From: an uncultured Syntrophomonadaceae bacterium
Lineage (GTDB): Bacteria; Bacillota; Dethiobacteria; DTU022
Assembly: GCA_964420065.1 (NCBI GenBank)
Contig: CAYQQK010000003.1
Location: 20,478 to 84,477 of the forward strand
DNA: 64,000 nt
Reading direction: 5' to 3'
The position numbers and the translations under genes were made by a program. Below, one piece after another: positions 19,510-57,702 of the stretch; the first letter of the stretch is position 1, and every line of letters starts with the position of its first letter. The notes beneath the pieces were generated by a model. It searched no databases, had not been told where the DNA came from, and was given only the letters and a program-made list of their open reading frames with translations.

Positions 19510-20718
19510 ATGCGAAAACTACCTTTATGGGCCTTGCGACCCGGCATGGAAGTAGCCCGGCGGGTCTACGACGGCAACGGTTTTTTGCTTTTGAACACCG
19601 GGGTTAAACTAAGACGGGCCTATATCGAGGGGCTGAAGGCTCACTGTATTCCCGCAATCTATATTGTTGATGATCTTATTCCAGACGTCCAAATTGTAGA
19701 CGTGATCCTTGATAAAACTCGACGGCGGGCCACCAGCCTGGTCCGCAAAATTATTTGTCAAGCACAACAATCGCCACAAAAAAACAAAAAGGAACAGGTA
19801 TTTCTTCCCCGGAGAGAATTGGAAACCGTTCTGGAGGAAATTATTTCCCAACTGCTCCACAACCGTCACCTGGCGATCAATATGACGGATATTCGCAGTG
19901 CGGATAGCTATACTTTTTCCCACTCGGTGAACGTAGCCGTCCTGGCAATAGTGACTGCAGCCGCCATGGGGTTGTCCCTTTCCGAGCTGCACCGGATCGG
20001 GCTGGGTGCGTTGCTGCACGATCTCGGGAAAACAAAAATTCCGCCTGCCATTCTGAACAAACGGACCCCGCTCCGGAGTGAAGAGATGGAACGGATTAAA
20101 CAACACCCGGCCGATGGTTACCGGATGTTGCAAACACAAAACTTTGGTTCCGCCGCCGCTTTGGTGGTTTATCAGCACCATGAACGCATTGATGGCAGCG
20201 GTTACCCCGACGGTATCACCGGAACAGAGATCGAACTTTTCTCCAAGATCGTCGCTGTAGTCGATGTTTATGACGCCCTGGTTTCCGATCGCCCGTATCG
20301 CCCGGCTTTTCCGCCACACCAGGCGATGGAGATTATCCAGGCCGGTAACGGCAGTTTTGATCGGGGTATTGTTGATAGGTTTCGCTATCATGTTCCGGCT
20401 TTCCCCGTGGGGACGATCGTGGCATTAAGTGACGGTTTTATCGGTGTGGTCGTTCAAAACACGGTTGGTTTTCCAACCAGTCCCCGGGTGCGAATCTTTT
20501 GCCGGCTTGAAACTTTTGAACCGGTAGTTCCTTTTGAAATAAATTTAGCCGACTCCCTTTCGGTGGTTGTAATCAAAGTCCTCGATGACCGGGAACTGCC
20601 TGATCCGTTGCCGATCCACGAATCCTGTCATGCAGCCAAACACAAGGGAAGTGCAAACATTCCGGCGCTGCACGGTGGAATCAGCAAGGCAAACCGTAGG
20701 GAAAAACCAACGGCCTAG
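19510..20718 (+). CDS. HD-GYP domain c-di-GMP phosphodiesterase
   Basis: HD motif (LLHDLGKTKIP) and HHERIDGSGYPDG (GYP) motif. Confidence 0.8.
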   Translation: MRKLPLWALRPGMEVARRVYDGNGFLLLNTGVKLRRAYIEGLKAHCIPAIYIVDDLIPDVQIVDVILDKTRRRATSLVRKIICQAQQSPQKNKKEQVFLPRRELETVLEEIISQLLHNRHLAINMTDIRSADSYTFSHSVNVAVLAIVTAAAMGLSLSELHRIGLGALLHDLGKTKIPPAILNKRTPLRSEEMERIKQHPADGYRMLQTQNFGSAAALVVYQHHERIDGSGYPDGITGTEIELFSKIVAVVDVYDALVSDRPYRPAFPPHQAMEIIQAGNGSFDRGIVDRFRYHVPAFPVGTIVALSDGFIGVVVQNTVGFPTSPRVRIFCRLETFEPVVPFEINLADSLSVVVIKVLDDRELPDPLPIHESCHAAKHKGSANIPALHGGISKANRREKPTA

Positions 20719-20729
20719 GGGGTAGCATC

Positions 20730-22529
20730 GTGAACCGGTCAGGGAACAATGGTCTGGATCAACCGGGTCAGGTTACGGTGATCAAGGGCGAGGCTAAAGT
20801 AATTGATCCTTGCGGGGCAGGCAGCACGGCCTGCATTTGCCCCGGTAAAGGGGTGTCCGTGCTCATTAACGGGGTCAAAATCTTCCGGCGTACACCCGTT
20901 TACTCCACCGATCGGATTCAAATTGAGACTGCGGGCAGCGTGGAACCGGCCAAGGTTTCCGTCCGAATTGCCCCCGACGGGATGTCAGCGGAGGCGGTGT
21001 TGTTCCCTCCGTTAACGGTTACCCATACACTGCCCGACTATCCGCCTTCGCCCGATCTCGAAATCGATGTTGTTGCCCGGGAAGAATACGGCGCCCTGTC
21101 ACTGGAGGAGGCTCTCGGCTTGCTGAGAGAACAGGGGGTTACCTTTGGGCTGGACGAAAAGGCGATTACAGAGCTGCTAAACAAACCCGGTGACTGGGGC
21201 GAGGTCGCCCGGGGTCGCCCGGTGGTGCCCGGCCGCGACGGTTGGGTCGAACCGCAGCATCAAGAATTGTTAAAAAAAGTTGTGTACGGTGAAAATGAAA
21301 ACCGGGTTGATTACCGGGAACGTTTTAAAATTTTACATGTGCAAACAGGCGACCTGCTGGCCCGCATTTGTCCCCCGGTTCCCGGGACGGTCGGGAAGCA
21401 GGTCACCGGTCGCGAAGTAGCAGCCCCACCGGTCTTCCCGGCGGAGGTCCAATGTGGAAAAGGGGCGACACTAAGTCCTGATGGGAGCCAAGTGTTCGCC
21501 AACCGGGTTGGAGCTCCGGTTTATCGGAAAGGCAAGATCCATCTCTTCCGGGTGGACAATCTTTATGTTCACCAGGGCAACATCGATATTCGCAGCGGCA
21601 ACACTGCTTTTCAGGGACATCTCAAGATTCAGGGTGATATCATGGAAGGCATGTCTGTTTCGGCCGAGGGCGAAATCGAGATTGCGGGCCATGCGACCGG
21701 GGCCAATATTTCGGCTGAGGGGCAGGTCATCATCAAAAATAATTGCATCAACTGCCATATTGAAGCCGGTCGAAAACAGATTGTCCGGAATGAATTTGGA
21801 GCTTACCTGAAGGAAACGATTGAGGTGATCGACAATGTTGGCGCCGCCTGCCGGAAGATTATCAGTACCCTGGAAAAACGCGGTCAAAAGGCCGGAGACC
21901 GCCTGCCCTTGATCATGCGCATGGTCGTGCAGAGCAAATTCCCAGCCGCGCCGCAACAGGTAATGGATAATATAGACAAAGCGGAGCGACTGAAACAGTT
22001 TTTGCCGGAAAAGGTTCTTGATTCCCTGCATTATTGCGCCGGTTTTTTTGGGGCATTACAGAATGGGGGCCGTCCGGTCGATTTTACAATGTTGAAGGAG
22101 ATACGGATCGGGCTGGCCCGGGCCGTCGCCTACCTCGATGAAGGCGAAATGGAAGGGATGGGCATCGTGGCCCATTACGTTCAAAACAGCACCCTGCTCT
22201 GCACCGGGGATATTACCATTTCCGGCCCGGGAGTCTACAATTCTACTTTAAAATGCAACGGTGCCGTCCGGGTGGAACGCATTTTTCGCGGTGGTAAAAT
22301 CGGCGCCGGCGGCGACGTCTGGATCGGTAAGGCAGGCACGGCCCGCCTTTCCGTCCAACAAGGGCTGATCCAGGTCCCCCCCGGGAACAAAATCCATCTC
22401 GGCCTGGCCTATGAAAACATGAAAGTGCAGATCGGACCCTCTTTTTATACCCTGAAACAGACCCTGACCGGGATCTGCCTTGCCCTCGATCCCGATAGTC
22501 TGCAGATCCGGATCCAACCCCGCTCTTAA
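20730..22529 (+). CDS. FapA-family (DUF342) flagellar assembly protein A-like, beta-helical
   Basis: 599 aa with C-terminal repetitive beta-helix-like segments (VSAEGEIEIAGHATGANISAEGQVII...). Located immediately upstream of flgM. Confidence 0.55.
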   Translation: MNRSGNNGLDQPGQVTVIKGEAKVIDPCGAGSTACICPGKGVSVLINGVKIFRRTPVYSTDRIQIETAGSVEPAKVSVRIAPDGMSAEAVLFPPLTVTHTLPDYPPSPDLEIDVVAREEYGALSLEEALGLLREQGVTFGLDEKAITELLNKPGDWGEVARGRPVVPGRDGWVEPQHQELLKKVVYGENENRVDYRERFKILHVQTGDLLARICPPVPGTVGKQVTGREVAAPPVFPAEVQCGKGATLSPDGSQVFANRVGAPVYRKGKIHLFRVDNLYVHQGNIDIRSGNTAFQGHLKIQGDIMEGMSVSAEGEIEIAGHATGANISAEGQVIIKNNCINCHIEAGRKQIVRNEFGAYLKETIEVIDNVGAACRKIISTLEKRGQKAGDRLPLIMRMVVQSKFPAAPQQVMDNIDKAERLKQFLPEKVLDSLHYCAGFFGALQNGGRPVDFTMLKEIRIGLARAVAYLDEGEMEGMGIVAHYVQNSTLLCTGDITISGPGVYNSTLKCNGAVRVERIFRGGKIGAGGDVWIGKAGTARLSVQQGLIQVPPGNKIHLGLAYENMKVQIGPSFYTLKQTLTGICLALDPDSLQIRIQPRS

Positions 22530-22575
22530 CTTTATTCTTTTTCTTGCCGATAGATGTGGTGAGGAGGGATTCCTG

Positions 22576-22863
22576 GTGAAAATAAAACCGGACCATGCCC
22601 TGCCGATCGGTCGACTCCCGGCTCGTGAAAACACGCGCGCCGGCCGGCCTTGCGGCGGCACCCCCCCGGGGGCGGGAATAGAACAGAAACAGATATCCGG
22701 CATGGCCGCCTTTTTAAAGGCTGAACTGGAAAAGGCAGAGCATGAAACCGACCCGTCCCGGGCTGCCCAGCTCCGAAATTTGCAAGACGCTATTGAACGC
22801 GGCGTCTACCGGACCGATCCGGCGCAGCTGGCCCGGGCCATGCTGACTCTGTTCAAACGCTAG
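22576..22863 (+). CDS. flgM: Anti-sigma-28 factor FlgM
   Basis: C-terminus LRNLQDAIERGVYRTDPAQLARAML matches the FlgM sigma-binding helix. GTG start after a GAGGAGGG RBS. The ORF-track start (22480) is too long for FlgM. Confidence 0.7.
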   Translation: MKIKPDHALPIGRLPARENTRAGRPCGGTPPGAGIEQKQISGMAAFLKAELEKAEHETDPSRAAQLRNLQDAIERGVYRTDPAQLARAMLTLFKR

Positions 22864-23043
22864 CGGGCCTCCCCGCCCACCCTGCGGGAGATCAGCTTAA
22901 GGGCAGCGCTGGGCCCCGAATCAAGGTTTTCGTTTTTTACGTACGCCCGGGACGGGATCCTCCGGCCGCTGCGCTCGTGACAGCAAGAGCACAGTGGGAA
23001 GGGCGGGGGCTCAACGATCCAAACGCCGGGAAAGGAGAGTTGG

Positions 23044-23550
23044 ATGGTGCACGATCCGATGACCCGTTCTGCTTCGGTTTCAGCCGAGCTCGAGGAGATC
23101 TTGCAGGAAGGGGTTGCCCTTCTGGCCGGGTTGCTTTGTTCCGAGGAGACGCTACAAAAACAGTTGATTCAAGGCGACTACCGCGCCATTTCCGCGACCG
23201 CCGGGGAACGGGACGAGCTGCAACGCCGCCTGGCGGCTTTCGAAACAAGAAGAGAGAAGTTTTTTCCACGGGGGACAAAAATCGGGGACGGCCTGGTCCA
23301 GACGGACACTGTACTGGCCCCGGGAGGGACGGGCGGTCGGGAACGGCTGCAGGCGCTGTTGGGGCAATTTCGCGAGGCGTTGCTGCAAGTTTACGCGCTG
23401 CAAGGAATAAACCGGGAACTGCTTCGGGAAAGGTTACGTTTTACCCGGGAGATGCAGGCCTTGCTTTCAGGCGACAAAGCCTACAACGACCGGGGTGAAC
23501 CGGCATCCGCCGTGCAGGAGGATGTGGCCCGGCTCGATCGCAACTGTTGA
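23044..23550 (+). CDS. FlgN-like flagellar export chaperone
   Basis: 168 aa helical protein at the flgM-flgN-flgK-flgL position, preceded by an AAAGGAG RBS. Confidence 0.45.
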   Translation: MVHDPMTRSASVSAELEEILQEGVALLAGLLCSEETLQKQLIQGDYRAISATAGERDELQRRLAAFETRREKFFPRGTKIGDGLVQTDTVLAPGGTGGRERLQALLGQFREALLQVYALQGINRELLRERLRFTREMQALLSGDKAYNDRGEPASAVQEDVARLDRNC

Positions 23551-23565
23551 GGAGGAAAGAACGGT

Positions 23566-24972
23566 ATGACTATATTTGGAAGTATGGAGATTGGACGGCG
23601 GTCTCTTCGCGCCCAGCTGAAGGGGATGGAAGTTAGCGGTCAAAACGTGGCTAATGCCAACACTCCAGGTTACAGCCGGCAGCGGGTCGACCTGCAGGCC
23701 ATTGCAATCCCCCTGGTGCCGGGAATACCGCTTTCTCCGGGCCGCGGCGTCAAAGTAGCGGCTGTGCAGCGCATCCAGAGCCAGTTTTACCGTTCACAAC
23801 TGAACCAGAACCATGGTCATCTCGGTTACTGGGAAACCTGCCAAGAAACCTTCCAGGGGGTTGAAGTGATTTTGATGGAGCCGGAGGAACACGGTTTAAA
23901 TCGGTTGCTGGGTGATTTTTTTGACCTCTGGCACGAGTTAAGCGCCTCCCCCGAAAGCATGGACGTGCGTACCAGCCTGCAAGCACAGGCGGTTACTTTC
24001 ACCCGAACGGTTCAGGAAGTTTATCTGCGCAGCAATGATCTGAGCTTGAGCCTGCAGGAAGAGATGACTCAGCGAGTCGAGGAAATCAATTTTTTAACCA
24101 AAGAAATTGCGGCCATAAATGAAAAGGTGACCCTGATGTACAACCTTGGGGACACCTCGAATGAACTGCTGGACCAGCTTGACCGGGCTGTGGAACAACT
24201 TTCCGCACTGATTGATGTGCAGACTCTCTACCGGTCCAACGGTGTCGTCCAGGTTTTTACTGGCGGACGGATGCTGGTGCAGGACAACCATAGCTACTCC
24301 CTGTCGATCGCCCGCAGCGACGCGGGCGCGATCGACATCCACAGTGATCGCGGTCAGCCTCTGACCCTGCATTCCGGGCGCCTGGCCGCACTGCAGCAAT
24401 CGGTCAACGCCATCATCCCCGATCTGCAGGGCAAGTTCGATCAAATGGTCTGCCGCCTGGTGGAAGAAGTAAACGCGCTGCATCGCGATGGTTACGGTCT
24501 GGACGGAACCGGGGAGCGCAACTTTTTTGAACCGATCGTTGCGGACAGTCTCATCCCCCCTTCTCTGCAGTTTAAACTCTCCGCCGATCTGTTTGGGGTA
24601 GCGGGTTGCGAGCCGGCCCGGGTTGCCGCTGCTTTCGAACCCGGGGAACCCGGCAACGGCGCGAACGCCCTTGAAGTGGCCCGGTTGCGTGAAGCGCTGA
24701 TCATGGAGGACGGCACCGCCTCGATCATCGAATACTACCGCAGCATTGTTGCTTCTCTGGGGGTGGAAGGCCAGGAATGCGAGCGCATGGTGGGGGCTTA
24801 CACCGCGGCGGAGGCGCAGCTTTTTGAGCGCAACCAGGCCATCGCCGGGGTTGACCTTGACGAAGAAATGTTGAACATGATCCAGTTCCAGCATGCCTGG
24901 CATGCCGCTTCGCTTTTTATCAAGAGCGTGGACGAAATGCTGTCCATTTTACTGTATGAACTGGGCCGGTAG
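23566..24972 (+). CDS. flgK: Flagellar hook-associated protein 1 FlgK
   Basis: N-terminal GQNVANANTPGYSRQ motif plus conserved C-terminal helix. Confidence 0.9.
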   Translation: MTIFGSMEIGRRSLRAQLKGMEVSGQNVANANTPGYSRQRVDLQAIAIPLVPGIPLSPGRGVKVAAVQRIQSQFYRSQLNQNHGHLGYWETCQETFQGVEVILMEPEEHGLNRLLGDFFDLWHELSASPESMDVRTSLQAQAVTFTRTVQEVYLRSNDLSLSLQEEMTQRVEEINFLTKEIAAINEKVTLMYNLGDTSNELLDQLDRAVEQLSALIDVQTLYRSNGVVQVFTGGRMLVQDNHSYSLSIARSDAGAIDIHSDRGQPLTLHSGRLAALQQSVNAIIPDLQGKFDQMVCRLVEEVNALHRDGYGLDGTGERNFFEPIVADSLIPPSLQFKLSADLFGVAGCEPARVAAAFEPGEPGNGANALEVARLREALIMEDGTASIIEYYRSIVASLGVEGQECERMVGAYTAAEAQLFERNQAIAGVDLDEEMLNMIQFQHAWHAASLFIKSVDEMLSILLYELGR

Positions 24973-25008
24973 CGGCCGTAAAACACCCGCGCAGAAGGAG
25001 TGACCGCA

Positions 25009-26634
25009 ATGCGTATCACCCACCGCATGATCGCCGGCGGGATCCAGCACCGGCTCGGGCAAAGTCTGAACCGGCTCGAGCGCTATTCCCAACAACTGGC
25101 CACAGGAAAAGTTTTTCAGCGCCCTTCCCAGAATCCGGTCGGCCTGGTCAAAGTGTTGCGTTACAGCACCTTGATCGAGCGCAATGAGCGGTACCGCCTG
25201 AACATGAATGAGGCTGCACGGTGGCTGGAAAGTACGGAAGACAGTCTTCGGGACGCGCTCGATTCAATCGAGCGGCTGCGTGAACTGTGTATCTACGGCG
25301 CCAACGAAGTTCTCACCGCTGCCGATCGCCATGCCCTGGCCCCGGAAACCCTCGAACTGAGCCGTTTTTTGTTCGACCTGGCCAATAAAGAATACAATGG
25401 CCTTTACCTTTTCGCCGGTCACAATACCCTGGAGACCCCCTTCGTGGAACGCAACCTCTACCGGATCGAGGCGGATGAGGATAGCGGCCTTGATCCGGCA
25501 TCGTTGCAGGCCGAAGGTCTTCAGAACGGTACCTACCGTCTCGCTTTGCGGACGATTGCCGGTGAAGCTCATCCGGCGGAGCTGGAAACGGTGCAGGCTT
25601 GTCTGGGCGACGCTGCCGCCGGTTCGATCTTTGGTGCGGCCGTTTCGACAGCGATCGATCCGGAGATCGATCAAAACGCTTCCATTCTGCTCGAGGTGCT
25701 TTCCGCCGACGGCGACACCGGGGAGGTGCGCTACCGCTTTACCGTGCACCGCTATGACCGGGACGGTGCCTATCACTGCGATCGGGGGGAAGCTTCCCTC
25801 GTTTTCGGCGGGCCAGCGGAGCAGTCCCTTGACCTGGGGGGGGGGATCGTGATCGCGGTCGGCGGGTTGGAGACGGCCAGCCCGGCGCAGGCCGGCCTGC
25901 TTGGTGCCTGCGACCGGGCTGTTTTGAACCTGCTTCCGGAGCGCCTGGCCGCTCAGGAATACCAGGAGGTGCGGCTATCCGGTGAGCACTGTGGGGGTGA
26001 GGCCTCATTCCGGCTCGTCTTCGATGCGGGGACGCTGCAGGAAGGAAGCAACCTGGCCCTGCATTACTTTACCATGAATACCTTCCCCCGTTCTCCTTTC
26101 CTCGGGGAGGCCCACCATGGTTCGGTTTCCCTGGGCTTCGGCGGTTCCTTCGTTGCAAGCGACGCGGCCGCTGTTTTTCATTACGACCGCGAAGGTTTCC
26201 CGGTGTACCGGGGTGATGACGGGCGGCGGGAACTGGATATCAGTCCCCACCAGGTCCTGGCGCTCAACCTGACCGGGCAACAGGCTTTCGGGAAGGAACA
26301 GGAGATTTTCCAGGCGGCCCGCGCCGTTTACCACGCTTTGATCGAAAACGATCGAACTCGTCTCGGCGGGGCGATCCTGGACGATCTGGATCACGCCGTC
26401 GATCTGATTTTACAGCGTTTATCCGAGGTAGGGGCGCGCCAGAAAAGGGTCGAGACGATGCAGGAAACCTTGTTTTGCGAAAGCATGCATCTGCGCGAAA
26501 TGCGTTCCCAGGTCGAGGATATCGATCTTGCCCTGACCATTGCCGAGTTTACGATGCAGGAAAACGCCTACCAGGCCGCCCTTGCCACCGCGGCGCGGAT
26601 CATGCCTCTGAGTTTGGTGGACTATTTGCGCTGA
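25009..26634 (+). CDS. flgL: Flagellar hook-associated protein 3 FlgL
   Basis: MRITHRM...LATGKVFQRPSQNPVG N-terminus. The AAGGAG RBS favours the ATG at 25009. Confidence 0.85.
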   Translation: MRITHRMIAGGIQHRLGQSLNRLERYSQQLATGKVFQRPSQNPVGLVKVLRYSTLIERNERYRLNMNEAARWLESTEDSLRDALDSIERLRELCIYGANEVLTAADRHALAPETLELSRFLFDLANKEYNGLYLFAGHNTLETPFVERNLYRIEADEDSGLDPASLQAEGLQNGTYRLALRTIAGEAHPAELETVQACLGDAAAGSIFGAAVSTAIDPEIDQNASILLEVLSADGDTGEVRYRFTVHRYDRDGAYHCDRGEASLVFGGPAEQSLDLGGGIVIAVGGLETASPAQAGLLGACDRAVLNLLPERLAAQEYQEVRLSGEHCGGEASFRLVFDAGTLQEGSNLALHYFTMNTFPRSPFLGEAHHGSVSLGFGGSFVASDAAAVFHYDREGFPVYRGDDGRRELDISPHQVLALNLTGQQAFGKEQEIFQAARAVYHALIENDRTRLGGAILDDLDHAVDLILQRLSEVGARQKRVETMQETLFCESMHLREMRSQVEDIDLALTIAEFTMQENAYQAALATAARIMPLSLVDYLR

Positions 26635-26666
26635 TTCCGAACCTGCACAAAAGGAGGAATAAGGTT

Positions 26667-27104
26667 ATGTCTGCCCAGTCAGACAATGGGCCGGTCGGCC
26701 CGCAAACACCGCCACAATTTCACTTTCCCCGTGGTTTGCCCGGTCTGGACGGGTTTCACCGGTTCCTGGTGAATCCGGTTCCCGGCAACCGTCTTTTCGC
26801 CATGCTCGTTGCCGCCGGCGATCCGGCGGTGGGGCTGATCCTGGTCGATCCCCTGCCCTTCTTTCCGGGCTACCGGGTCGATCTTTTCCCGGTCGACCGG
26901 CGGGACCTGCTGCTGAAGGAGGAGCGGGACCTGGTTATATTTACCACCGTAGCCGTGGACGATCAGGAACTATATACCAACCTCGGCGCCCCGATTCTGA
27001 TCAACGTGATCAGCAAGCGCGGCAAGCAGATCATCCTTCCCGATCGGACGAACCAGTTGCGCGTCCCGCTCGACCCCGGGCCCGAACATTGCGCCGTCTC
27101 TTGA
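26667..27104 (+). CDS. fliW: Flagellar assembly factor FliW (CsrA antagonist)
   Basis: FHFPRGLPGLDGFHRF...TNLGAPILINVISKRG matches FliW. GGAGGAATAAGG RBS. The ORF-track start at 26475 overlaps flgL. Confidence 0.85.
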   Translation: MSAQSDNGPVGPQTPPQFHFPRGLPGLDGFHRFLVNPVPGNRLFAMLVAAGDPAVGLILVDPLPFFPGYRVDLFPVDRRDLLLKEERDLVIFTTVAVDDQELYTNLGAPILINVISKRGKQIILPDRTNQLRVPLDPGPEHCAVS

Positions 27105-27382
27105 AGAGGATTCGCCGCCGGCTTTATTGGGGGGGAAGATCAACGCTTGCCGCATGAATAATGGGAGCAACCCATCGGTGGAGGACAAGGGAACGGACCT
27201 CAAGGGATGGCCCGTTTTTTTGTTTCTGCGAACTTTCTCCTCCGAAAGAGGCAGTTGCCGTTTCGAAAAGCTTGGGGCATCGGGAGAGGGAAAACAGATT
27301 TCGGGGAGGTTTAATGCGGGGGAATAGCGAAATTTGTTCCGGGGGTGAGGTATTGCCTTTCCCGGAAAGGGGTGAGCTGCGA

Positions 27383-27628
27383 ATGCTGGTGCTGACCCGC
27401 AAGAGCGGTGAAAAGATCATGATCGGTGAAGAAATCGAGATCACGGTGGTCGCAGTTGACGGGGAGGCGGTACGCTTGGGGGTTAATGCTCCTCGGGATG
27501 TGCCGGTCTTCCGCAGTGAGGTCTTCGAAGAGATCCGCCTTGAAAACCTGCGTGCGCTCAAGTCTGCGGCGTGCCTGCAAGCGAAACTGGGACGGGGAAG
27601 CGAGGGGGTGGAAAAACCGGAACTTTAA
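27383..27628 (+). CDS. csrA: Carbon storage regulator CsrA
   Basis: MLVLTRKSGEKIMIGEEIEITVVAVDGEAVRLGVNAPRDVPVFRSEV is a canonical CsrA. Positioned fliW-csrA-hag as in Bacillus. Confidence 0.9.
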   Translation: MLVLTRKSGEKIMIGEEIEITVVAVDGEAVRLGVNAPRDVPVFRSEVFEEIRLENLRALKSAACLQAKLGRGSEGVEKPEL

Positions 27629-27685
27629 AACCACCGGTCCGAAACATGGATTATTATTTCAGCCGGCCTGGCCATCAGTGAAAAA

Positions 27686-29665: not shown

Positions 29666-29739
29666 TCAGATCGGGTTAACCGGGCCGGGGATGTAAAGGG
29701 ATGGGAAAAGTGGAAACTAGAAACCGGCTCGAAAGAGGG

Positions 29740-47981: not shown

Positions 47982-47984
47982 GGA

Positions 47985-48359: not shown

Positions 48360-48390
48360 TCGGGTTAAAACGTTAAAAGAAGGAATAAAC

Positions 48391-49538: not shown

Positions 49539-49550
49539 GGAGTGCGAAGG

Positions 49551-49817: not shown

Positions 49818-49974
49818 ATAGTTGGTTTTTCCTCCCCTTCCCTCCTTGTAAAGGTGGAACGGAGCAGGGGTTACGGTAACCGTTGATATTGGCGGCGGCA
49901 AGCAGGCAATTTCTCATCCCTCTTGAGGGGGAAAAGGTGTGGCCGGAGGGGATGGGTCAGGGGGGAGTGATAAG

Positions 49975-50751
49975 GTGATCGAAGAAATTTTTAACCAGGA
50001 TTGGTGGTTTCCCTATCTGCTCATTACCGCGCGGGTGACCGGGGTGATTTTTCTGTTCCCCTTTTTCGGTTGGCGCGGTGCCCCGGCGGCGATCAGGCTC
50101 TGGCTGTCCATGTTCATCGGGCTGGCCATTTTCTTCTCCTTGCGGGGAGAAATATTTCCTGTTTCCCGGGGCGGGGTGGAAACGGTGTTGTTCATGGCCA
50201 AGGAAGTTCTGACAGGGTTGGCACTCGGTTACCTGAACCTGTTATTTTTAACGGTGTTCCTCAACACCGGCCAGTTCATCGACATCAAAGCCGGTTTGAT
50301 GCTTTCCGGAGTGTTCGAACCGCAATTCGGCAACCAGGTTACTTTTGTAGGGCAGCTCTATTATCTGACGGCGATGGCTTTTTACCTGGCCATCAACGCG
50401 CATCATTATTTTTTGCAGGCGTTGGCAGAAAGTTTTGCTTTGATTCCTTTGGGGGCCGGACTTTTCGGTCGGTCAATCGCAGGCGGGCTGGCCCGGATCC
50501 TGGCCGATTCGATTCGCCTTGCTTTTCAACTGGCTGCGCCGATCATTGTTACCCTGCTTCTAGTTGACCTGGCCCTGGGTCTTGTTGCCCGGACGGTGCC
50601 CCAGATCCATGTTTTCATCGAAGGACTACCCTTGAAGATCGCCCTTTCCCTTTTACTGGTTGCAGTATTGCTGCCTTTGACGGGAATAGCTATGGAAAAT
50701 TTCCTTAACCGGTTTTTACGGCAGTATCTTCAATTCATGCAGGGGTGGTGA
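49975..50751 (+). CDS. fliR: Flagellar export apparatus protein FliR
   Basis: Polytopic, about 260 aa, located after fliQ. The start is uncertain; a GTG at ~49975 was chosen. Confidence 0.8.
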   Translation: MIEEIFNQDWWFPYLLITARVTGVIFLFPFFGWRGAPAAIRLWLSMFIGLAIFFSLRGEIFPVSRGGVETVLFMAKEVLTGLALGYLNLLFLTVFLNTGQFIDIKAGLMLSGVFEPQFGNQVTFVGQLYYLTAMAFYLAINAHHYFLQALAESFALIPLGAGLFGRSIAGGLARILADSIRLAFQLAAPIIVTLLLVDLALGLVARTVPQIHVFIEGLPLKIALSLLLVAVLLPLTGIAMENFLNRFLRQYLQFMQGW

Positions 50752-50755
50752 AACC

Positions 50756-51841
50756 GTGTTATTTCTCGCCGCAGAGGGAGGAGACAAAACTGAACAACCA
50801 ACCCCGCACCGCCTTCGGGAAGCGCGGCGCAAGGGGCAGGTTTTCAAAAGCACAGAACTGAATGCGGCGATCAACATTCTTGGGGTGATGCTGGTACTGC
50901 TCCTTCTGGGGCGAATGGCCGGCGTTGCTTTCCTGGGGATGTTCAGGCATTATTTCGATCAGATCGGGGAACGTGCCGTTGACATGGGCAACATCAAAGC
51001 TGTCGGTGCAGAAGCAGGGTATTTTTATTTTAATCTGGTTGCCCCGATCTTTTTAACCGCCTTGCTTCTCGGGGTAGCATCCAACCTGGCCCAGGTCGGC
51101 TTCCTGATTACGCCCTCACAATTGACACCGCAACCCGGCCGGCTCAATCCCATGGAGGGGTTGAAAAGAATCGTTTCAGGCCGGGCCCTGTTTGAACTGT
51201 TGAAATCGCTCCTCAAAATTGTAATCGTGGGTCTAGTTGCGTACACGTATGTTCGCGGCCGGCTTGACCGGACCCTGATGCTGCTCGATCGCAGCCCGGT
51301 TGTGTGCATGGAATTTTTTTGGCAGACCATGGTCGAGCTGGGATTGCGGGTCGGGTTTGTTTACGCGGCACTGGCGGTGCTGGACTACCTTTTTCAGCGC
51401 TGGGAATACATGAAAAGCATGCGCATGAGCCGGATGGAGGTTAAAGACGAGTTGAAACACCTGGAAGGGGATCCACTGATCCGTTCCCGGATCCGGGAAA
51501 AACAACGGCATCTGGCCCGCCAGCGTATGCTGCATGACGTGCCCGAAGCGGACGTTGTGGTCACCAACCCGACGGAAATAGCAGTAGCCTTGCGCTATCG
51601 CGCTGACCGGGACAGCGCGCCGCGCGTTGTGGCCAAGGGAATGGCTCGCATTGCTGCACAGATCAAAAAAATCGCCCGGGAAAACGAGGTGCCGGTGGTG
51701 GAAAATCCCGGCGTAGCGCGCTTGCTCTGGAAACAGGCTGAACCGGGTGAGGAAATACCGGTTGATCTTTACCAGGCGGTGGCCGAGATCCTGGCCCTGG
51801 TCTACCGGCTTAAGGGAAAACAGGTTCCCGAGTCGGTATAA
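50756..51841 (+). CDS. flhB: Flagellar export apparatus protein FlhB
   Basis: GDKTEQPTPHRLREARRKGQVFKS N-terminus; the autocleavage NPTH-like region is present (NPTE). Confidence 0.9.
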   Translation: MLFLAAEGGDKTEQPTPHRLREARRKGQVFKSTELNAAINILGVMLVLLLLGRMAGVAFLGMFRHYFDQIGERAVDMGNIKAVGAEAGYFYFNLVAPIFLTALLLGVASNLAQVGFLITPSQLTPQPGRLNPMEGLKRIVSGRALFELLKSLLKIVIVGLVAYTYVRGRLDRTLMLLDRSPVVCMEFFWQTMVELGLRVGFVYAALAVLDYLFQRWEYMKSMRMSRMEVKDELKHLEGDPLIRSRIREKQRHLARQRMLHDVPEADVVVTNPTEIAVALRYRADRDSAPRVVAKGMARIAAQIKKIARENEVPVVENPGVARLLWKQAEPGEEIPVDLYQAVAEILALVYRLKGKQVPESV

Positions 51842-52004
51842 AGGACTTCCCTTTTCCCCTTTGCGGGGGGAGAAGGAGGGGCAAAGATTGAACTAACGAC
51901 GTCTCTATTGTTCAATAATCTTCTTCTCTCTCACCCCCTGTTTCCCCCAGGGTGAGGAGAAAAGAAGCCGGGGAAGAAGCAGTTTGTACGGGAGGTAGAA
52001 CAAC

Positions 52005-54089
52005 ATGACCTCTAGATCGGGAGCGGGCCGTAAAATACCATGGATAGCCTATATCCGGGGCAACCTGGATATTGTAGGAATGATCGCCTTTGTCTTTGTG
52101 GTCGCTATTATTATCATCCCAATCCCGACTGGTTTGCTGGATCTGCTCCTGACCTTCAATATCACTATCGGCCTGGTCATTTTACTGAACATTCTTTTCA
52201 CCAGGGAAACCCGGCAACTACACATCTTCCCTTCCGCATTGCTGGCCACGACCCTCTTCCGCCTGGCGCTGAACATCTCATCGACCCGCCTTATTTTGTC
52301 CCAGGCCGATGCCGGAAGAGTAATTCAGGCCTTCGGCCAATTTGTGGTCGGGGGCAACATGGTCGTCGGAATGGTCATCTTTTTGATCATCACCGTTGTC
52401 CAGTTCGTGGTTATAACCAACGGGGCGGGGAGGATTGCCGAGGTGGCGGCCCGGTTCACTCTTGATGCTCTGCCCGGCAAGCAAATGAGTATCGATGCCG
52501 ATTTCAATGCCGGTTTGATCGATGAGAAGGAGGCCCGTTACCGGAGAAAGGAGCTGCAACAGGAAGCCGACTTTTACGGGGCGATGGACGGCGCCAGCAA
52601 ATTTGTGCGGGGTGATGCCATTGCCGGGATCGTGATCGTGTTGATCAATATTATCGGGGGGCTGTCGATCGGGGTGCTGCAACGGGGAATGGAGGTGGCC
52701 GAAGCAGCCCGGGTCTATACCGTACTGACGGTGGGGGACGGATTGGTGGCCCAGGTGCCGGCTTTGCTCATATCCACTGCCGCCGGCATGCTGGTGACCC
52801 GCTCAACCGCGGAAGCTTCCTTTGGCGAAGAGATCACCGGGCAGTTTTTCAGTTATCCCAAGGTGATCATGCTCGCCGCGGTGCTTCTCTTTTTTCTTGG
52901 CCTTGTTCCGGGGTTGCCCGAAATACCTTTTTTCATGCTGGCCGGTGCATTCGGGATGGTTGCTTTTACCCTGACGCGCGAACAGAAACGGGCGGCAGCG
53001 GAACCGGAAGAAGATAAAAGACCGGCGGCGAAAGAGCCGGAGGACTTTCGGCAGATCCTGAAAGTTGAATTGCTGGAAATAGAAATTGGCTATAATCTGG
53101 TTCCGTTGACTGATGAAACTGCAGGAGGAAACCTTCTTGAACGTATCACCGCGGCCCGACACCGGGCGATCAAGGAGCTGGGCATGATCATCCAGCCGAT
53201 CCGGGTTCGCGACAATTTGCACCTGGCGCCGAACGAGTACCTGTTCAGGTTAAAGGGTAACGAAATCGTTCGCAACGAGGTCCGTCCCGGAATGTTCCTG
53301 GCTTTGAACCCGGAGGGTGAGCTGCCGGATACGCTCGAGGGCCTGCCTACCCGTGAGCCTACTTTCGACTTACCGGCCCAGTGGATCGGTGCGGATCAAA
53401 AAAACCATGCCGAGATGCTGGGGCTGACCGTGGTTGACGCGGCCACGGTTCTGGTGACCCACCTCCTGGAAACGATCCGGAACAACGCGCACGAGCTTCT
53501 GGGCCGGCAAACAGTCCAGGAAATGTTGCAAATCGTGAAAGAGAACCAACCGGCGGTGGTCGAAGAGCTGCTGCCCGAGATCATGACCCTGGGTGCAATC
53601 CAGAAAGTTTTGCAAAACCTGTTGCGCGAGAGGGTGCCCCTGCACGATCTGGTTACGATTTTGGAAGAACTGACCGACCAGGCGCGAACGATAAAGGAGA
53701 TCGATTTTCTGACAGAATCGGTCCGTCAGACTCTCTGTCGCACCATCACCGGCCTTTATGCTGACTCCGGCGGTCGCCTCAAGGTAATCACCCTTGATCC
53801 CGCACTGGAACAAAAGCTGGCCGAATCGCTGCAAACCACCCGGCAAGGCCTGTTTCCCATTTTGGAACCGCAAGCGGCACGGAACCTGCTCACCGGTCTG
53901 GGGAGGATGGTTGAAAAGGTGACCGGAAAGGGGATCACGCCCATCGTGATGACCGCACCCGGTATTCGCCTGCCCTTCCGGCGCATGATTGAACGCTCTT
54001 TTCCACAGGTGGCGGTTTTATCCGTGCATGAAATTTTACCCGAAACAGCAGTGGAAGCAGTGGGGGTGATCCGGGAAGATGAAAATTAG
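52005..54089 (+). CDS. flhA: Flagellar export apparatus protein FlhA
   Basis: 694 aa with an N-terminal 8-TM domain and a cytoplasmic domain. RBS GGGAGG. Confidence 0.95.
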   Translation: MTSRSGAGRKIPWIAYIRGNLDIVGMIAFVFVVAIIIIPIPTGLLDLLLTFNITIGLVILLNILFTRETRQLHIFPSALLATTLFRLALNISSTRLILSQADAGRVIQAFGQFVVGGNMVVGMVIFLIITVVQFVVITNGAGRIAEVAARFTLDALPGKQMSIDADFNAGLIDEKEARYRRKELQQEADFYGAMDGASKFVRGDAIAGIVIVLINIIGGLSIGVLQRGMEVAEAARVYTVLTVGDGLVAQVPALLISTAAGMLVTRSTAEASFGEEITGQFFSYPKVIMLAAVLLFFLGLVPGLPEIPFFMLAGAFGMVAFTLTREQKRAAAEPEEDKRPAAKEPEDFRQILKVELLEIEIGYNLVPLTDETAGGNLLERITAARHRAIKELGMIIQPIRVRDNLHLAPNEYLFRLKGNEIVRNEVRPGMFLALNPEGELPDTLEGLPTREPTFDLPAQWIGADQKNHAEMLGLTVVDAATVLVTHLLETIRNNAHELLGRQTVQEMLQIVKENQPAVVEELLPEIMTLGAIQKVLQNLLRERVPLHDLVTILEELTDQARTIKEIDFLTESVRQTLCRTITGLYADSGGRLKVITLDPALEQKLAESLQTTRQGLFPILEPQAARNLLTGLGRMVEKVTGKGITPIVMTAPGIRLPFRRMIERSFPQVAVLSVHEILPETAVEAVGVIREDEN

Positions 54090-55224
54090 AAAATTCTTCT
54101 GCAATGGCGTCCACGAAGGGTTGCAAAGGGTTAAGCGGGAACTCGGACCCGATGCGATGATTTTGCAGTGTCGCAAAGCCCGACGCCGGGGATTCGCCGG
54201 GTTGTTTGCCCCTCCGGGGGTGGAGATAATTGCAGTGCTGGACTGTTCCCCCGGACCGGCAGTTTTTGAAGACAGGGTGCGGGAAACAAAAACAGGCCGG
54301 GAATGGGTCCGGCCCGAAACGGTGCACGCGGGGCAACGAGAGTTAAGAAGTTTGATCCGGGAGGCCAAACCGGAGGGGAAAGTCGCTCTCCCCCCTGTTT
54401 CCCGTAACCGGTTTCACCTCTGGCAGGCGTTGCTCGAACGCCATGATCTTGATCCGGCCTTGCGCGAGGCTATTTTGGGCGAACTGGAACACAGTATAAC
54501 AGGTTCAACCGTTCCGGTTCCGGAAACAACGGCCTTGGCGCTGGTAAAAGAGACGATCCGTCGTATTCCCCGGTGTCATGAAAAAACAAACCGGGTCAAA
54601 ATACTGGTCGGTCCGACCGGGGTGGGGAAAACCACTACCCTGGCCAAACTGGCGGCGCGGTATTCCCTTTTTCACCGGGAGAAGGTGGGCCTGATCACGG
54701 TCGATCATTATCGGATCGGGGCGGTGGAACAGCTTGGCACCTACGCCGATATTATCGGGTTGCCGATGGAAACGGTACTGGCCCCCGACGAACTACCGGC
54801 AGCCCTGGCCTGTCTCGAGGGCTGTCGGCATATCCTGGTAGATACTGCGGGAAAACCGACGGGGAACCCGGATGAAATTGAAGATCTGTCCGCCTATATC
54901 AAACAGCTGTTGCCGGCCGAGGTGTTTTTGGTTGTCAGCGCCACAACCCGCCGGCAGGACCTGCAGCTCATTGCCGACAGTTTTGCCGCGCTGCACTATA
55001 ACCGGCTCATCATCACCAAAATGGATGAGACCGCTTCCTTCGGCGCCCTGCTCAACGCACCGCATTATACGGGCTGTTCACTGGCCTACCTGACCGATGG
55101 GCAAAGCGTACCTGAAGATTTGCAACTGGCCCGGGAAGTGAACCTGGAGACCCTACTCTTTCCCGGGGGAGGTGAAACCGGTTGGCCGATCAGGCAGAAA
55201 AGTTGCGGGAGTATGCTGTCGTAA
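54079..55224 (+). CDS. flhF: Flagellar SRP-like GTPase FlhF
   Basis: GPTGVGKTTTLAKLA G1 motif and DTAGK G3 motif. Confidence 0.85.
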   Translation: MKIRKFFCNGVHEGLQRVKRELGPDAMILQCRKARRRGFAGLFAPPGVEIIAVLDCSPGPAVFEDRVRETKTGREWVRPETVHAGQRELRSLIREAKPEGKVALPPVSRNRFHLWQALLERHDLDPALREAILGELEHSITGSTVPVPETTALALVKETIRRIPRCHEKTNRVKILVGPTGVGKTTTLAKLAARYSLFHREKVGLITVDHYRIGAVEQLGTYADIIGLPMETVLAPDELPAALACLEGCRHILVDTAGKPTGNPDEIEDLSAYIKQLLPAEVFLVVSATTRRQDLQLIADSFAALHYNRLIITKMDETASFGALLNAPHYTGCSLAYLTDGQSVPEDLQLAREVNLETLLFPGGGETGWPIRQKSCGSMLS

Positions 55225-56114
55225 CAGGACACGAGGCCACGACCGGAAGAGCAGGGACATGCCGGGTTGTAACTGTCACCAGCGGTAAAGGGGGTGTCGG
55301 CAAGAGCAGCCTGGCGCTGAATATGTCCCTGGCTCTGGCCCGTGCGGGAAGCCGGGTAGCCGTTGCCGATCTGGATCTCGGCCTGGCCAATCTCGATGTT
55401 TTACTGAATATGCTGCCGCGTTATACCATGAACGACCTGCTTGACGGGACAAAAGGTTTGGCGGAGGTGGTGCTGACCGGGCCCTATGGGTTGCGACTGG
55501 TGCCGGGTTGCACGGGTACTTTTGATATGGCCAACCTCGACCCGGTTCGAACGGGCCGTCTCATCGAAAAATTGCGGTTGCTGGAACAAGAATGTGATCT
55601 CCTCTTTTTAGATACCGGAGCCGGGCTTTCCCGTCCCATCCTTGATTTTGTCCGGGCGGCCGATGAGTTTATTGTCGTCACCACACCCGACCCGACCGCC
55701 CTGACCGATGCTTACGGCATCCTGAAAGCCATCTTCCAGCGCGGCGATGCCGGAAAAGGTTACATTGTCATCAATTTTGTTCGTTGTACCAGGCAGGGGG
55801 AAGAGGTTTTTGAAAAATTACGGCAGGTTGTTCAACGCTACCTGCCCGGAATGGATATTCAGTACCTGGGCGGGATCAGCTACGACCCGGCCGTAGCTGA
55901 AGCTGTTCGGAACTTCACCCCTTTTATACTCAGTCACCCCGGATCTGTTGCGGCAGATGCCGTGAATCGGATCGCCCGGCGGCATTATCTTAGTGCCAAT
56001 AGATCCGAGAACCGTCCGGCGGGGCTGATCTCTTTTTTGAACCGGCTCAAAAATTTCGATTCGGGCCGGATCCGGCCCGAATCGGGGCCGGCCGGCAGTG
56101 CACCGGCCCGGTAG
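55182..56114 (+). CDS. flhG: MinD-like ATPase FlhG (YlxH/FleN)
   Basis: Deviant Walker A (SGKGGVGKSS), MinD/ParA family, positioned after flhF. Confidence 0.8.
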   Translation: MADQAEKLREYAVVTGHEATTGRAGTCRVVTVTSGKGGVGKSSLALNMSLALARAGSRVAVADLDLGLANLDVLLNMLPRYTMNDLLDGTKGLAEVVLTGPYGLRLVPGCTGTFDMANLDPVRTGRLIEKLRLLEQECDLLFLDTGAGLSRPILDFVRAADEFIVVTTPDPTALTDAYGILKAIFQRGDAGKGYIVINFVRCTRQGEEVFEKLRQVVQRYLPGMDIQYLGGISYDPAVAEAVRNFTPFILSHPGSVAADAVNRIARRHYLSANRSENRPAGLISFLNRLKNFDSGRIRPESGPAGSAPAR

Positions 56115-56156
56115 AGGCCGGGTGCAAATAAACGACAACAAAAGGCGGGACATGTT

Positions 56157-56888
56157 TTGGAGCGCAAAACGAGGAGCGGGTCGGGCATGGCAGGCCGTGA
56201 TCCATTCCAAAGCGGAACCAGGATCCAGGTATTCCATAAAACGGAGTGGCTTTCCTGTACCGCACTGATCGGTGAAACCGGAAAGGATTTTTTTACGATC
56301 ACTTTCTCCCCGGCGGGGAGAAGAAAACCGGAAATGCCGCCGGGCAGCACATGGATGTTTTGCCTGCTCCGGGAAGAAGGTCTTTATCGTTTCAGCGCTC
56401 CGGTGATGGAATGTATCACCAGGCCCGGGGCGCTTCCGGTCTACCGCGTTGCCCGGCCCTCCCTGATGCAGCGGCAACAGCGGCGGCGGTTTGTCCGCCT
56501 TTCTTGCAACCTTAGTGCGCTCTATTGGAGGTTGGAACGGAAGTTTCCTCACCCGACGGGGAAAAGGTGCGCCGCAGGTCTGCTTTCATCCATGGTGGAA
56601 CAACAGCCGGGCACCGAGGCGCGGGTTTTGAACATTTCCGGGGGCGGCCTGAAACTGCTTGCCCCGGAGCACCTGCCTCTGGGGACGCGGCTACTGTTGC
56701 AATTACAACTTGATGCCCCGGAGGCCAGGATGCTTGTGGCGGAGGGTATTATCGAGCGGGTGCAGCCGGTAGATCCAAAATACCGGAACCGGTTTCAAAT
56801 CGGGGTTTCTTTCAGTGCCATTCACCGGGGTGCGCGTGAACGGATCATTCGCTACATTTTCCGCCGTCTGCGCTGCCGTTTTCGGTAA
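56157..56888 (+). CDS. PilZ-domain c-di-GMP receptor, YcgR/MotI-like flagellar brake
   Basis: RRRFVR (RxxxR) and NISGGG (D/NxSxGG) PilZ motifs, with a YcgR-like N-domain. Confidence 0.65.
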   Translation: MERKTRSGSGMAGRDPFQSGTRIQVFHKTEWLSCTALIGETGKDFFTITFSPAGRRKPEMPPGSTWMFCLLREEGLYRFSAPVMECITRPGALPVYRVARPSLMQRQQRRRFVRLSCNLSALYWRLERKFPHPTGKRCAAGLLSSMVEQQPGTEARVLNISGGGLKLLAPEHLPLGTRLLLQLQLDAPEARMLVAEGIIERVQPVDPKYRNRFQIGVSFSAIHRGARERIIRYIFRRLRCRFR

Positions 56889-56937
56889 AATCCCGGTCGG
56901 AAGCGGAATCATGATCTGTGGAAGGAGGTTGCCGGTA

Positions 56938-57702
56938 ATGGAACATGCGATCAGCACGAGTTTGGAGGAACAGGAGTCCGCCCAAAAGGAGGCCATTGTT
57001 CTATCCTTTCTGCCCCTGATCAAAAAGCTCTCCGGTAAACTGAGCCTGGCCCTGCCCCCTTCTTTGGATGAGGGAGACTTGATCAACAGTGGCATCATCG
57101 GCTTGTTGGAAGCTTTGGGACGCTATGATCCCACGCGCAAGGTCAAATTCAGTGCTTTTGCCATGAGCCGGATCCGGGGAGCAATGATCGATGAACTGCG
57201 CAAGGTTAGCCTGGCACCGCGTTCCTTTTTTCCTCGCCTGCGCCTGGTCCAGGAAGCTGAAGCCCGGCTTCGTCAGAAGCTGCAACGGGAACCTTCTTCG
57301 GCCGAGACGGCCCGTTTTTTGGGCTGGACCGAATCTGCCCTGAATCAGGTTTGGGCCGGCTTCAACCTGCTGGCGGTGCTTTCCCTTGAGAAATTACTTT
57401 TTGAATCGATCCGGGGAGATGCCTTGAAATTGGAGGAAACACTTTCCGCGGATTGGGGTGATCCGGAAGAAGCCATGCTGGGGGATGAAAAAATGTCCAT
57501 CCTTTCCGCGGCCCTGGACCGGCTACCGCCCCGGGAGAAACTGCTTCTATCACTTTACTACTATGAAGACCTGACGCAAAAAGAGATTGCCACCATGATG
57601 AACATATCCACGGTTCGGGTTTCGCAGCTGCATGCCCGGGCACTCCGGCGTCTGCGCGAAATCCTGGTGCCCGGGGCTGAGGGTGAAACGGGGGCGTTTT
57701 GA
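56938..57702 (+). CDS. fliA: Flagellar sigma factor FliA/SigD (sigma-28)
   Basis: Sigma-70 regions 2-4; region 4 LTQKEIATMMNISTVRVSQLHARALRRLR. RBS GGAAGGAGG before the ATG at 56938. Confidence 0.8.
   Translation: MEHAISTSLEEQESAQKEAIVLSFLPLIKKLSGKLSLALPPSLDEGDLINSGIIGLLEALGRYDPTRKVKFSAFAMSRIRGAMIDELRKVSLAPRSFFPRLRLVQEAEARLRQKLQREPSSAETARFLGWTESALNQVWAGFNLLAVLSLEKLLFESIRGDALKLEETLSADWGDPEEAMLGDEKMSILSAALDRLPPREKLLLSLYYYEDLTQKEIATMMNISTVRVSQLHARALRRLREILVPGAEGETGAF

Follow-up and report, generated by a model that had tools for sequence, protein, structure and literature searches.

A flagellar gene cluster that carries sensors and an enzyme for a second messenger raises the question of whether it holds a whole signalling circuit or only some of its parts. 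The question arises for a stretch of 64,000 nucleotides from an uncultured Syntrophomonadaceae bacterium (the 64-kb window, meaning the whole stretch of DNA that was analysed), in which parts connected with cyclic di-GMP (c-di-GMP) stand among the genes for the flagellum. The original prediction described a complete c-di-GMP circuit within one regulon at 19510-57702, an interval that runs exactly from the start of an HD-GYP phosphodiesterase gene to the end of fliA. All of the sequence features that it listed are real, but neither the grouping into one regulon nor the completeness holds: one of the two riboswitches lies outside both this interval and the flagellar cluster, and the window contains no diguanylate cyclase, which contradicts a complete circuit. 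The window probably holds a Bacillota flagellar cluster with three known kinds of c-di-GMP parts wired into it, namely a riboswitch, a PilZ protein and an HD-GYP enzyme, and a fourth part, the other riboswitch, lies outside.

Family membership, motifs, folds, the anatomy of terminator and antiterminator, and synteny can be read directly from the window and from related loci. Pfam and NCBIfam scans covered nearly all sizeable open reading frames (ORFs) of the window, and an Rfam search was run at gathering thresholds. The latter returns three matches (two aptamers of the c-di-GMP-I clan and one tRNA-Arg), and a six-frame scan finds a single HD-GYP motif and a single PilZ motif pair. The parts and their neighbours are arranged as follows.

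19510-34782: late flagellar block (HD-GYP, fapA, flgM, flgN, flgK, flgL, fliW, csrA, two flagellins, fliD, fliS)
19510-20718, plus strand: HD-GYP phosphodiesterase gene (PF13487)
20730-22529, plus strand: fapA (DUF342), a flagellar assembly protein A homologue (PF20250, E=4e-33; PF03961, E=2.5e-24)
22576-22863: flgM (PF04316)
35248-35445, plus strand: sigma-A-type promoter, flgB riboswitch (rs2) and terminator
35479-45711, plus strand: flgB, flgC, fliE, fliF, fliG, fliH, fliI, fliJ, fliK, flgD, a small Flagellar_put gene and flgE
45869-62215: motA, motB, fliL, a fliN-like gene, fliO, fliP, fliQ, fliR, flhB, flhA, flhF, flhG, the PilZ gene, fliA, orf134, two flgG-like genes, fliM, fliN and fliY
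45869-46684 and 46635-47423, plus strand: motA and motB, the stator genes, presumed target of the PilZ protein
54079-55224 and 55182-56114, plus strand: flhF and flhG
56187-56888, plus strand: gene of a MotI-like protein of 233 amino acids (aa), very probably PilZNR-PilZ
56938-57702, plus strand: fliA (sigma-28), TIGR02479, 207.5 bits against a cut-off of 189.6

The riboswitch upstream of flgB

The riboswitches placed at ~5600 and ~35300 both score above their Rfam gathering thresholds. The aptamer in the 5' leader of flgB (rs2; 35299-35373, plus strand) matches RF01051 with 61.2 bits (gathering score 35; E=1.6e-9). The conserved core, GGCAAAC...GACGCAAAGCC...GCUGCC, which comprises the ligand-contacting nucleotides, is identical to the RF01051 consensus in rs2 as well as in the other aptamer (rs1, treated below). 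The early basal-body and hook genes, flgB to flgE, lie directly 3' of rs2, and two elements flank the aptamer.

35248-35276, plus strand: sigma-A-type promoter for the flgB leader, TTGCAT-N17-TATTAT, read directly from the sequence and unlisted by the consensus scanner
35414-35445, plus strand: intrinsic terminator of rs2, with a 10-bp GC-rich stem, a GCAA loop and T8, 40 nucleotides (nt) after the aptamer

The 3' segment of the aptamer, GCUGCC (35365-35370), pairs with the 5' arm of the terminator, GGCAGC (35418-35423), to give an alternative antiterminator. This pairing forms when the transcript is folded up to the terminator loop, where a second helix extends it, and over the full leader the two structures are nearly iso-energetic (antiterminator -64.1 kcal/mol, terminator -65.6 kcal/mol). 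Since GCUGCC is part of the 3' strand of the aptamer's own P2/P1, ligand binding should free the terminator arm, as in an OFF switch. The flgB ribosome-binding site (RBS; 35461-35469) lies 3' of the T-run and is not sequestered, and flgB starts at 35479. Two relatives (loci L035 and L036, with proteins ~50% identical) carry a c-di-GMP-I aptamer at the equivalent site 5' of flgB, and in both leaders the terminator 5' arm GGCAGCC pairs with GGUUGCC of the aptamer in an intermediate fold. The order of aptamer, terminator and flgB, together with a GG(C/U)UGCC : GGCAGC(C) pairing, is common to the window, L035 and L036, so that the predicted OFF-switch anatomy, a terminator with a competing antiterminator, is kept in all three leaders.

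As judged from the sequence, this anatomy fits a transcriptional OFF switch like Cd1 of Clostridioides difficile, which lies upstream of flgB and has been shown experimentally to switch off by termination (PMC6366702). When no ligand is present, the aptamer segment GCUGCC would pair with the terminator 5' arm, the antiterminator would form and flgB to flgE, possibly with further genes, would be transcribed. When c-di-GMP is bound, GCUGCC would be locked in the aptamer, allowing the terminator to form and transcription to stop. It is very improbable that the flgB riboswitch is instead an ON switch or acts on translation rather than on termination. The full-length minimum-free-energy fold of the leader (ViennaRNA) holds aptamer helices and terminator together and gives no direction alone, and in L036 the antiterminator is itself the minimum-free-energy fold, both of which lend something to that alternative. 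However, the competitor of the terminator 5' arm lies in the aptamer 3' strand in all three leaders, which means that the ligand should release the terminator. The Cd1 precedent is an OFF switch by termination (PMC6366702), and the flgB RBS downstream of the T-run is free.

The PilZ protein between flhG and fliA

A transcriptional OFF switch would act on the synthesis of flagella; a second point of action, on motors already built, is suggested by the PilZ gene, which lies between flhG and fliA as predicted. The ORF (56157-56888) has its best start at ATG 56187 behind an AGGAG RBS, and the product matches PF07238 above the gathering score (37.5 bits against 22.5, E=3e-9). Both PilZ motifs, in the definition of Galperin and Chou (bioRxiv 10.1101/814665), are present: RxxxR as R100-R104 (RRFVR within QRRRFVR) and [D/N]hSxxG as N149-I-S151-G-G-G154 (NISGGG). 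Neither varies in an alignment of 6 homologues or in one of 57, and across the 57 sequences the invariant residues include Q98, R100, R104, S151 and G152-154.

The AlphaFold2 model of the protein (predicted local distance difference test score 89.6) contains two beta-barrel domains, of which the PilZ domain, a six-stranded barrel with strands in 105-210 and a C-terminal helix at 214-232, matches the PilZ domains of YcgR, Alg44 and BcsA. The top Foldseek match over the full length is MotI of Bacillus subtilis (5vx6, E=1e-11), followed by MrkH, PlzD, PP4397 and YcgR, and the family profile aligns with MotI across both domains (residues 10-225, E=2e-20). Homologues carry PF12945 together with PF07238, and NCBI and JGI annotate them as 'flagellar brake protein'. 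On the basis of these homologues, the family profile and Foldseek, the N-terminal domain of the window protein is very probably a PilZNR domain. No match to PF07317, the YcgR-type PilZN domain, is found in the protein even at E up to 10, and it is therefore called MotI/PlzD-like and not YcgR-like. Of the description 'YcgR/MotI-like', the MotI half stands on profile and fold, and the YcgR half is given up.

A MotI-type PilZNR-PilZ protein would bind c-di-GMP at the inter-domain site formed by RxxxR and NISGGG, and in the bound state would inhibit already assembled motors via the MotA stator, a target taken over from MotI. By analogy, the PilZ protein most likely brakes MotA. For MotI itself, a clutch-like action on MotA has been described (Subramanian et al. 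2017, as reported in a paper citing it).

The genomic setting of the gene bears on this target. When GTDB species representatives are scanned with the PilZ family, 33 loci are obtained (Clostridia, Lachnospiraceae, Dethiobacter, Acetivibrio and others), all in Bacillota, and in 30 of these the gene comes straight after flhF-flhG. On its 3' side lies either fliA, as in the window, or cheB-cheA...fliA. The literature search found no specific description of an flhG-PilZ-fliA arrangement in Clostridia or Firmicutes. The frequent position after flhF-flhG fits a functional link to FlhG and is one reason to consider a c-di-GMP receptor whose target is not MotA, which might act on the FliG/FliM rotor, as has been proposed for YcgR, on the FlhF/FlhG system for flagellar placement and number, or, like FlgX of Campylobacter, positively by stabilising the stator. 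In the same direction point the debate over whether YcgR targets MotA or FliG (PMC10140304), the requirement of Campylobacter motility for the PilZ-family protein FlgX (PMC11725899) and an identity to MotI of only ~16% in structural alignment. However, among solved structures MotI is the best match by sequence profile over the full length as well as by fold, the window protein has the canonical two-domain form, unlike the tetrameric PilZ form of FlgX, and a PF07317 match is missing. A target other than MotA is accordingly a minority option, with perhaps one chance in a handful of being right, and a brake on MotA is preferred.

The HD-GYP enzyme

The gene at 19510-20718 encodes an HD-GYP protein, as had been predicted, with a PF13487 match of 119.9 bits (cut-off 27.2; E=1e-34) and the motifs LLHDLGK (H170, D171) and HHERIDGSGYP. 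Its alignments with PmGH (4mcw) and V-cGAP3 (5z7c) reach E=1e-26 to 1e-27, and its fold matches every solved HD-GYP structure. Compared with the residue list of PmGH from Bellini et al. (PMC4159591), seven of the eight metal ligands are present (H138, H170, D171, H199, H223, H224 and D252, the counterparts of PmGH H189, H221, D222, H250, H276, H277 and D305), as is the catalytic pair D132 and K174 (PmGH D183 and K225). All nine residues are invariant in 63 orthologues, so that a lack of catalytic residues, which would have spoken against the prediction, is not what is seen. The eighth ligand, PmGH E185 of the E/D-T-G signature that marks the trinuclear subgroup, is replaced by Tyr134 (Y134-T-F). 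A Y/F subgroup of HD-GYP proteins is predicted to be binuclear (PMC4159591), and the tyrosine places the window protein in it.

The protein begins with a DUF3391-like domain, on which Pfam DUF3391 does not score. After the HD-GYP core come a small beta domain in the C-terminal part (~300-357) and, at the end, a disordered tail (378-402), neither of which gives an informative match. The protein contains no REC, GAF or PAS domain and no recognisable sensor domain. The fapA gene starts 11 nt 3' of the HD-GYP gene, and the two are probably co-transcribed. A Bd1817-like HD-GYP enzyme at this position, adjoining flgM-flgN-flgK-flgL-fliW-csrA, would hydrolyse c-di-GMP and favour motility.

Hundreds of full-length orthologues of ~373 aa exist, and their surroundings change with distance. 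At 48% identity or more, all six loci (the window, its closest relative L040, and L039, L035, L036 and L041) have the HD-GYP gene immediately 5' of fapA-flgM-flgN-flgK, whereas none of the four loci examined at 45% or less shows the fapA-flgM adjacency. A ComFB gene stands between the HD-GYP gene and fapA in L035 (11147-11407), L036 (11123-11422) and L041 (10579-10887), and L039 encodes a fusion of ComFB with the HD-GYP protein (604-2046). The ComFB family has recently been established as receptors of c-di-GMP and c-di-AMP, and comFB of B. subtilis lies near flgM and inhibits motility (PMC12448109; PMC12265714). In the window, tblastn with the ComFB sequences of three relatives gives no match below E=0.2, and L040 likewise has none; the window lineage has lost ComFB. 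The window HD-GYP protein ends in a disordered tail of ~35 aa (20620-20730), a few residues of which align with the fused ComFB, and this tail may be a ComFB remnant. No mention of an HD-GYP-ComFB-FapA-flgM block or of a comFB-fapA-flgM linkage was found in the literature searched.

These comparisons also bear on the possibility that the HD-GYP protein is not the c-di-GMP sink, but hydrolyses 3'3'-cGAMP (cyclic GMP-AMP) or mainly pGpG, or acts chiefly by protein contacts, in which case its place beside the flagellar genes would close no c-di-GMP loop. The best sequence match among structures of the Protein Data Bank is V-cGAP3, a cGAMP-specific phosphodiesterase; the protein belongs to the Y/F subfamily that lacks the eighth metal ligand; and the more distant orthologues are not beside flagellar genes. 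On the other hand, both aptamers match the c-di-GMP-I consensus core, which makes c-di-GMP the nucleotide sensed locally, the DUF3391-HD-GYP enzymes PA4108 and VC2497 hydrolyse c-di-GMP (10.1101/2021.11.05.467447), and in relatives the HD-GYP gene adjoins, or is fused with, a member of the c-di-GMP/c-di-AMP receptor family (PMC12448109). An enzyme that is no c-di-GMP sink, and with it a loop left unclosed, is unlikely on this balance, and hydrolysis of c-di-GMP is preferred.

Possible sigma-28 control and feedback

Membership of the HD-GYP gene in the FliA regulon was approached through sigma-28-type promoters, whose reference form is TAAA-N15-GCCGATAA-like. A strict sigma-28-type pattern has no more than three occurrences in the window, both strands counted, and a strict search of the window for TAAA-N14-17-CCGATA returns nothing relevant. 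A relaxed pattern, TAA[ACT]-N14-16-[GAC]CGATA, finds the promoters of flgM and of the intact flagellin, with only a degenerate site 5' of the HD-GYP gene.

22527-22553, plus strand: sigma-28-type promoter of flgM, TAAC-N15-GCCGATAG
29741-29768: sigma-28-type promoter of flagellin-2 (the intact flagellin), TAAC-N15-ACGATAAA

The two share the form TAAC-N15-(G/A)C(C/G)GATA(A/G). At the site aligned with the degenerate one, 80 nt 5' of its HD-GYP gene, the closest relative L040 has a canonical TAAC-N15-ACGATAA, and L036 has TAAG-N15-GCCGATAA 5' of its HD-GYP gene; no sigma-28-type match is found 5' of the gene in L035, L039 or L041. The placing of the HD-GYP gene in the FliA regulon, read from these sequences, is suggestive, not decisive.

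It is conceivable, though doubtful, that HD-GYP, ComFB (where present) and FapA form a conserved c-di-GMP sink and receptor module dedicated to the flagellum and transcribed with the late sigma-28 genes, which would act as a positive feedback toggle. With sigma-28 downstream of an OFF riboswitch, high c-di-GMP would shut off its own remover and low c-di-GMP would reinforce itself, giving a built-in bistable toggle between motile and sessile states that the window lineage would have simplified by the loss of ComFB. Such feedback would arise only if the HD-GYP gene is under FliA and the expression of fliA depends on the riboswitch.

Weighing the parts together

Several observations weigh against reading these parts as one wired system. 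The first is the missing cyclase. In agreement with the original prediction, the six-frame scan finds no GG[DE]EF or EAL-type motif in any ORF of the window of at least 100 aa, and the Pfam scans find no PF00990 (GGDEF) or EAL domain; the cyclase or cyclases making the signal would be encoded elsewhere in the genome. At the HD-GYP gene, the promoter in the window is degenerate (TAAT-N15-ACGAAAG, 19430-19456), with two -10 mismatches relative to ACGATAA, and with tyrosine in place of E185 the enzyme is predicted to be binuclear and might be slower or prefer pGpG; its best sequence match among solved structures is the cGAMP-specific V-cGAP3. In the PilZ protein, PilZNR (PF12945) stays below the cut-off when the window protein is searched alone (E=0.053, 14.1 bits against 23), with an alignment that spans profile positions 3-83 of 85, and an insertion of ~25 aa (residues ~113-140, with a predicted helix at 129-139) separates RxxxR from NISGGG. 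Within the gene block itself, a further hairpin may uncouple motA...PilZ...fliA from the control of rs2.

45717-45757, plus strand: 18-bp perfect GC-rich hairpin followed by TCTTTTTCTC (a U-rich tail), between flgE and motA

This hairpin sits in an otherwise tightly packed flagellar gene block, and no convincing promoter is seen 3' of it; its possible roles are internal termination, attenuation, or stabilisation of the mRNA to set the ratio of hook to stator expression. Finally, all assignments of ligand and target are predictions from homology, and ligand binding, enzyme substrate, the MotA target and operon extents are inferred.

A further alternative is that the parts are co-located without forming a circuit, each having come down independently as part of the gene order usual for Bacillota flagella, in which case their place in the cluster would mean nothing for regulation beyond what each part does by itself. 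In its favour, flhG-PilZ pairs and riboswitch-flgB leaders are both common and can be found one without the other. C. difficile possesses Cd1, and the gene of B. subtilis MotI is not known to lie in the fla/che operon. Moreover, rs1 plainly has nothing to do with motility, and no cyclase is encoded in the window. Against such independence, at least two relatives have the HD-GYP gene, an rs2-type aptamer and a PilZ gene together on one contig, and all three parts respond to or act on one ligand known to control motility. In L035 and L036 the contigs with the HD-GYP orthologues P0165 and P0174 also carry PilZ homologues, P0038 and P0027, so that the three-part layout is a property of the clade. 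Mere co-location is thus given little credence, and a flagellar cluster with c-di-GMP parts wired in remains the preferred reading.

The second riboswitch

The original prediction counted both riboswitches in one regulon. The second aptamer (rs1) is separated from the flagellar cluster by unrelated genes and a tRNA, and for this reason does not belong to the motility regulon; it lies ~12 kb from the HD-GYP gene. The features from the aptamer to the start of the cluster are these.

5604-5694, plus strand: rs1, riboswitch aptamer of the c-di-GMP-I clan (Rfam), upstream of a transglutaminase-like gene, with the flagellar cluster some distance away
5749-7155, plus strand: transglutaminase-like gene (PF01841, E=1e-27)
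7780-16433: five unrelated genes on the minus strand (PK_C-like, MFS transporter, hybrid-cluster protein, permease and glycosyltransferase) and a tRNA
17039-19417, plus strand: two metabolic genes, for a DUF1847 protein and a fumarase

The aptamer matches RF03167 of clan CL00126 with 74.1 bits (gathering score 59; E=1e-15), and its core, GGCAAACC...GGGACGCAAAGCC, is identical to the RF01051 consensus. Its best model, RF03167, is that of the 'GGC' variant, which differs from RF01051 at one position of the core consensus (ACGC-G/A-AA), where rs1 has the canonical A and not G. A 'GGC' variant with another ligand was considered and rejected as unsupported, the sole differing position carrying the canonical base. 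Orthologous flgB aptamers of the relatives likewise score best on RF03167, so the choice between the two models does not discriminate. No paper defining the ligand of the 'GGC' variant was found in the literature searched.

The product of the gene 3' of rs1, a membrane or secreted protein, combines a transglutaminase core with a hydrophobic N-terminus; the gene starts at ATG 5749 after a GGAGGG RBS. No intrinsic terminator is found 3' of rs1, its RBS (5735-5740) lies within a hairpin, and folding of the leader gave no ON or OFF direction. By its sequence rs1 is a c-di-GMP output of its own, which would control a transglutaminase-like envelope protein and probably do so through translation.

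Other features of the window

A CRISPR-Cas locus occupies the beginning of the window, and the array accounts for the ORF-poor stretch just 5' of rs1. One further ORF precedes the flgB leader.

99-1858: cas2 (99-368), cas4 (365-943) and csa1 (950-1858)
1983-~5043: CRISPR array in which GTTTCACCAACTACCCCGATCAATAGGGGACTGAAAG (37 nt) is repeated at least 41 times, the spacers being ~36 nt
34697-35152: ORF without known function

The two flagellin genes of the late block (27629-29665 and 29898-31952) are 79% identical overall, with nearly identical conserved N- and C-terminal blocks and a divergent middle (~aa 170-360). The first lacks the first 42 codons, which form the N-terminus for export and polymerisation, adjoins the csrA stop and has no visible promoter. 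It may have become a pseudogene, or it may serve as a silent cassette from which flagellin is varied by recombination. Besides FliM, three genes with FliN domains (47985-48359, 60766-61176 and 61184-62215) encode two small FliN-like proteins and a FliY with a CheC domain, an expanded set of C-ring components. The 134-aa ORF right after fliA (57724-58128) has weak matches only, to DUF6115 and helix-turn-helix-like domains, and its position after fliA is kept in the Dethiobacter-like loci L002-L008.

Significance and comparison with known systems

The cluster would be a compact natural case in which c-di-GMP acts on flagella twice, on their synthesis through the riboswitch and on their rotation through the PilZ brake, with a dedicated phosphodiesterase encoded alongside, in an uncultured lineage of Bacillota. 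All parts come from well-described families and the main arrangement has experimental precedent. Model species have already provided each of the mechanisms (Cd1 in C. difficile, MotI in B. subtilis, and HD-GYP enzymes), so the value of the locus lies mainly in annotation and comparison. Two small additions are the linkage of flhG and PilZ in the Bacillota loci and the clade-specific block that ties a phosphodiesterase and ComFB to late flagellar genes; this conserved HD-GYP-ComFB-FapA-flgM block, with the feedback it suggests, is the mildly new element.

The closest parallel for the riboswitch is Cd1, with which the window shares a class I aptamer located in the 5' leader of flgB between a housekeeping-type promoter and an intrinsic terminator, and a sigD/fliA gene further 3' in the same gene block (PMC6366702). 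The window differs in its organism and its high-GC genome and in having no sign of an invertible 'flagellar switch', and unlike the Cd1 block its own may be split by the strong hairpin after flgE; the function of rs2 is here a prediction from sequence.

The HD-GYP enzyme resembles the Bd1817 family of DUF3391-HD-GYP proteins (PA4108, VC2497, Borrelia PdeB), from which it differs by the extra C-terminal beta domain and disordered tail, by an N-terminal domain that Pfam DUF3391 leaves unscored and by the tyrosine at the E185 position. ComFB systems beside flagellar genes are found in B. subtilis, with comFB upstream of flgM, and in T. denticola. The comFB-flgM neighbourhood of B. subtilis (PMC12448109) is echoed by L035, L036 and L041, where ComFB lies 5' of flgM, but not by the window.

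For the PilZ protein the nearest known system is MotI of B. subtilis (DgrA/YpfA, 5vx6), which has a PilZNR-PilZ two-domain form that the window protein very probably shares, with RxxxR and [D/N]hSxxG at the domain junction in both. Unlike MotI, to which its identity is low, the window protein has the insertion between the motifs. This insertion is common to a subgroup of homologues of ~244 aa and absent from the 219-aa Dethiobacter-type proteins and MotI. The window gene also lies inside the flagellar cluster after flhG, whereas ypfA presumably lies outside the fla/che operon of B. subtilis. YcgR of Escherichia coli, PlzD (VCA0042) of Vibrio and PP4397 of Pseudomonas are c-di-GMP-binding xPilZ-PilZ proteins that slow flagellar rotation, and they match the window protein in structure at E values of 1e-7 to 1e-9. 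The N-domain of YcgR is PilZN (PF07317), undetected in the window protein, which is very probably of the PilZNR type of MotI and PlzD.

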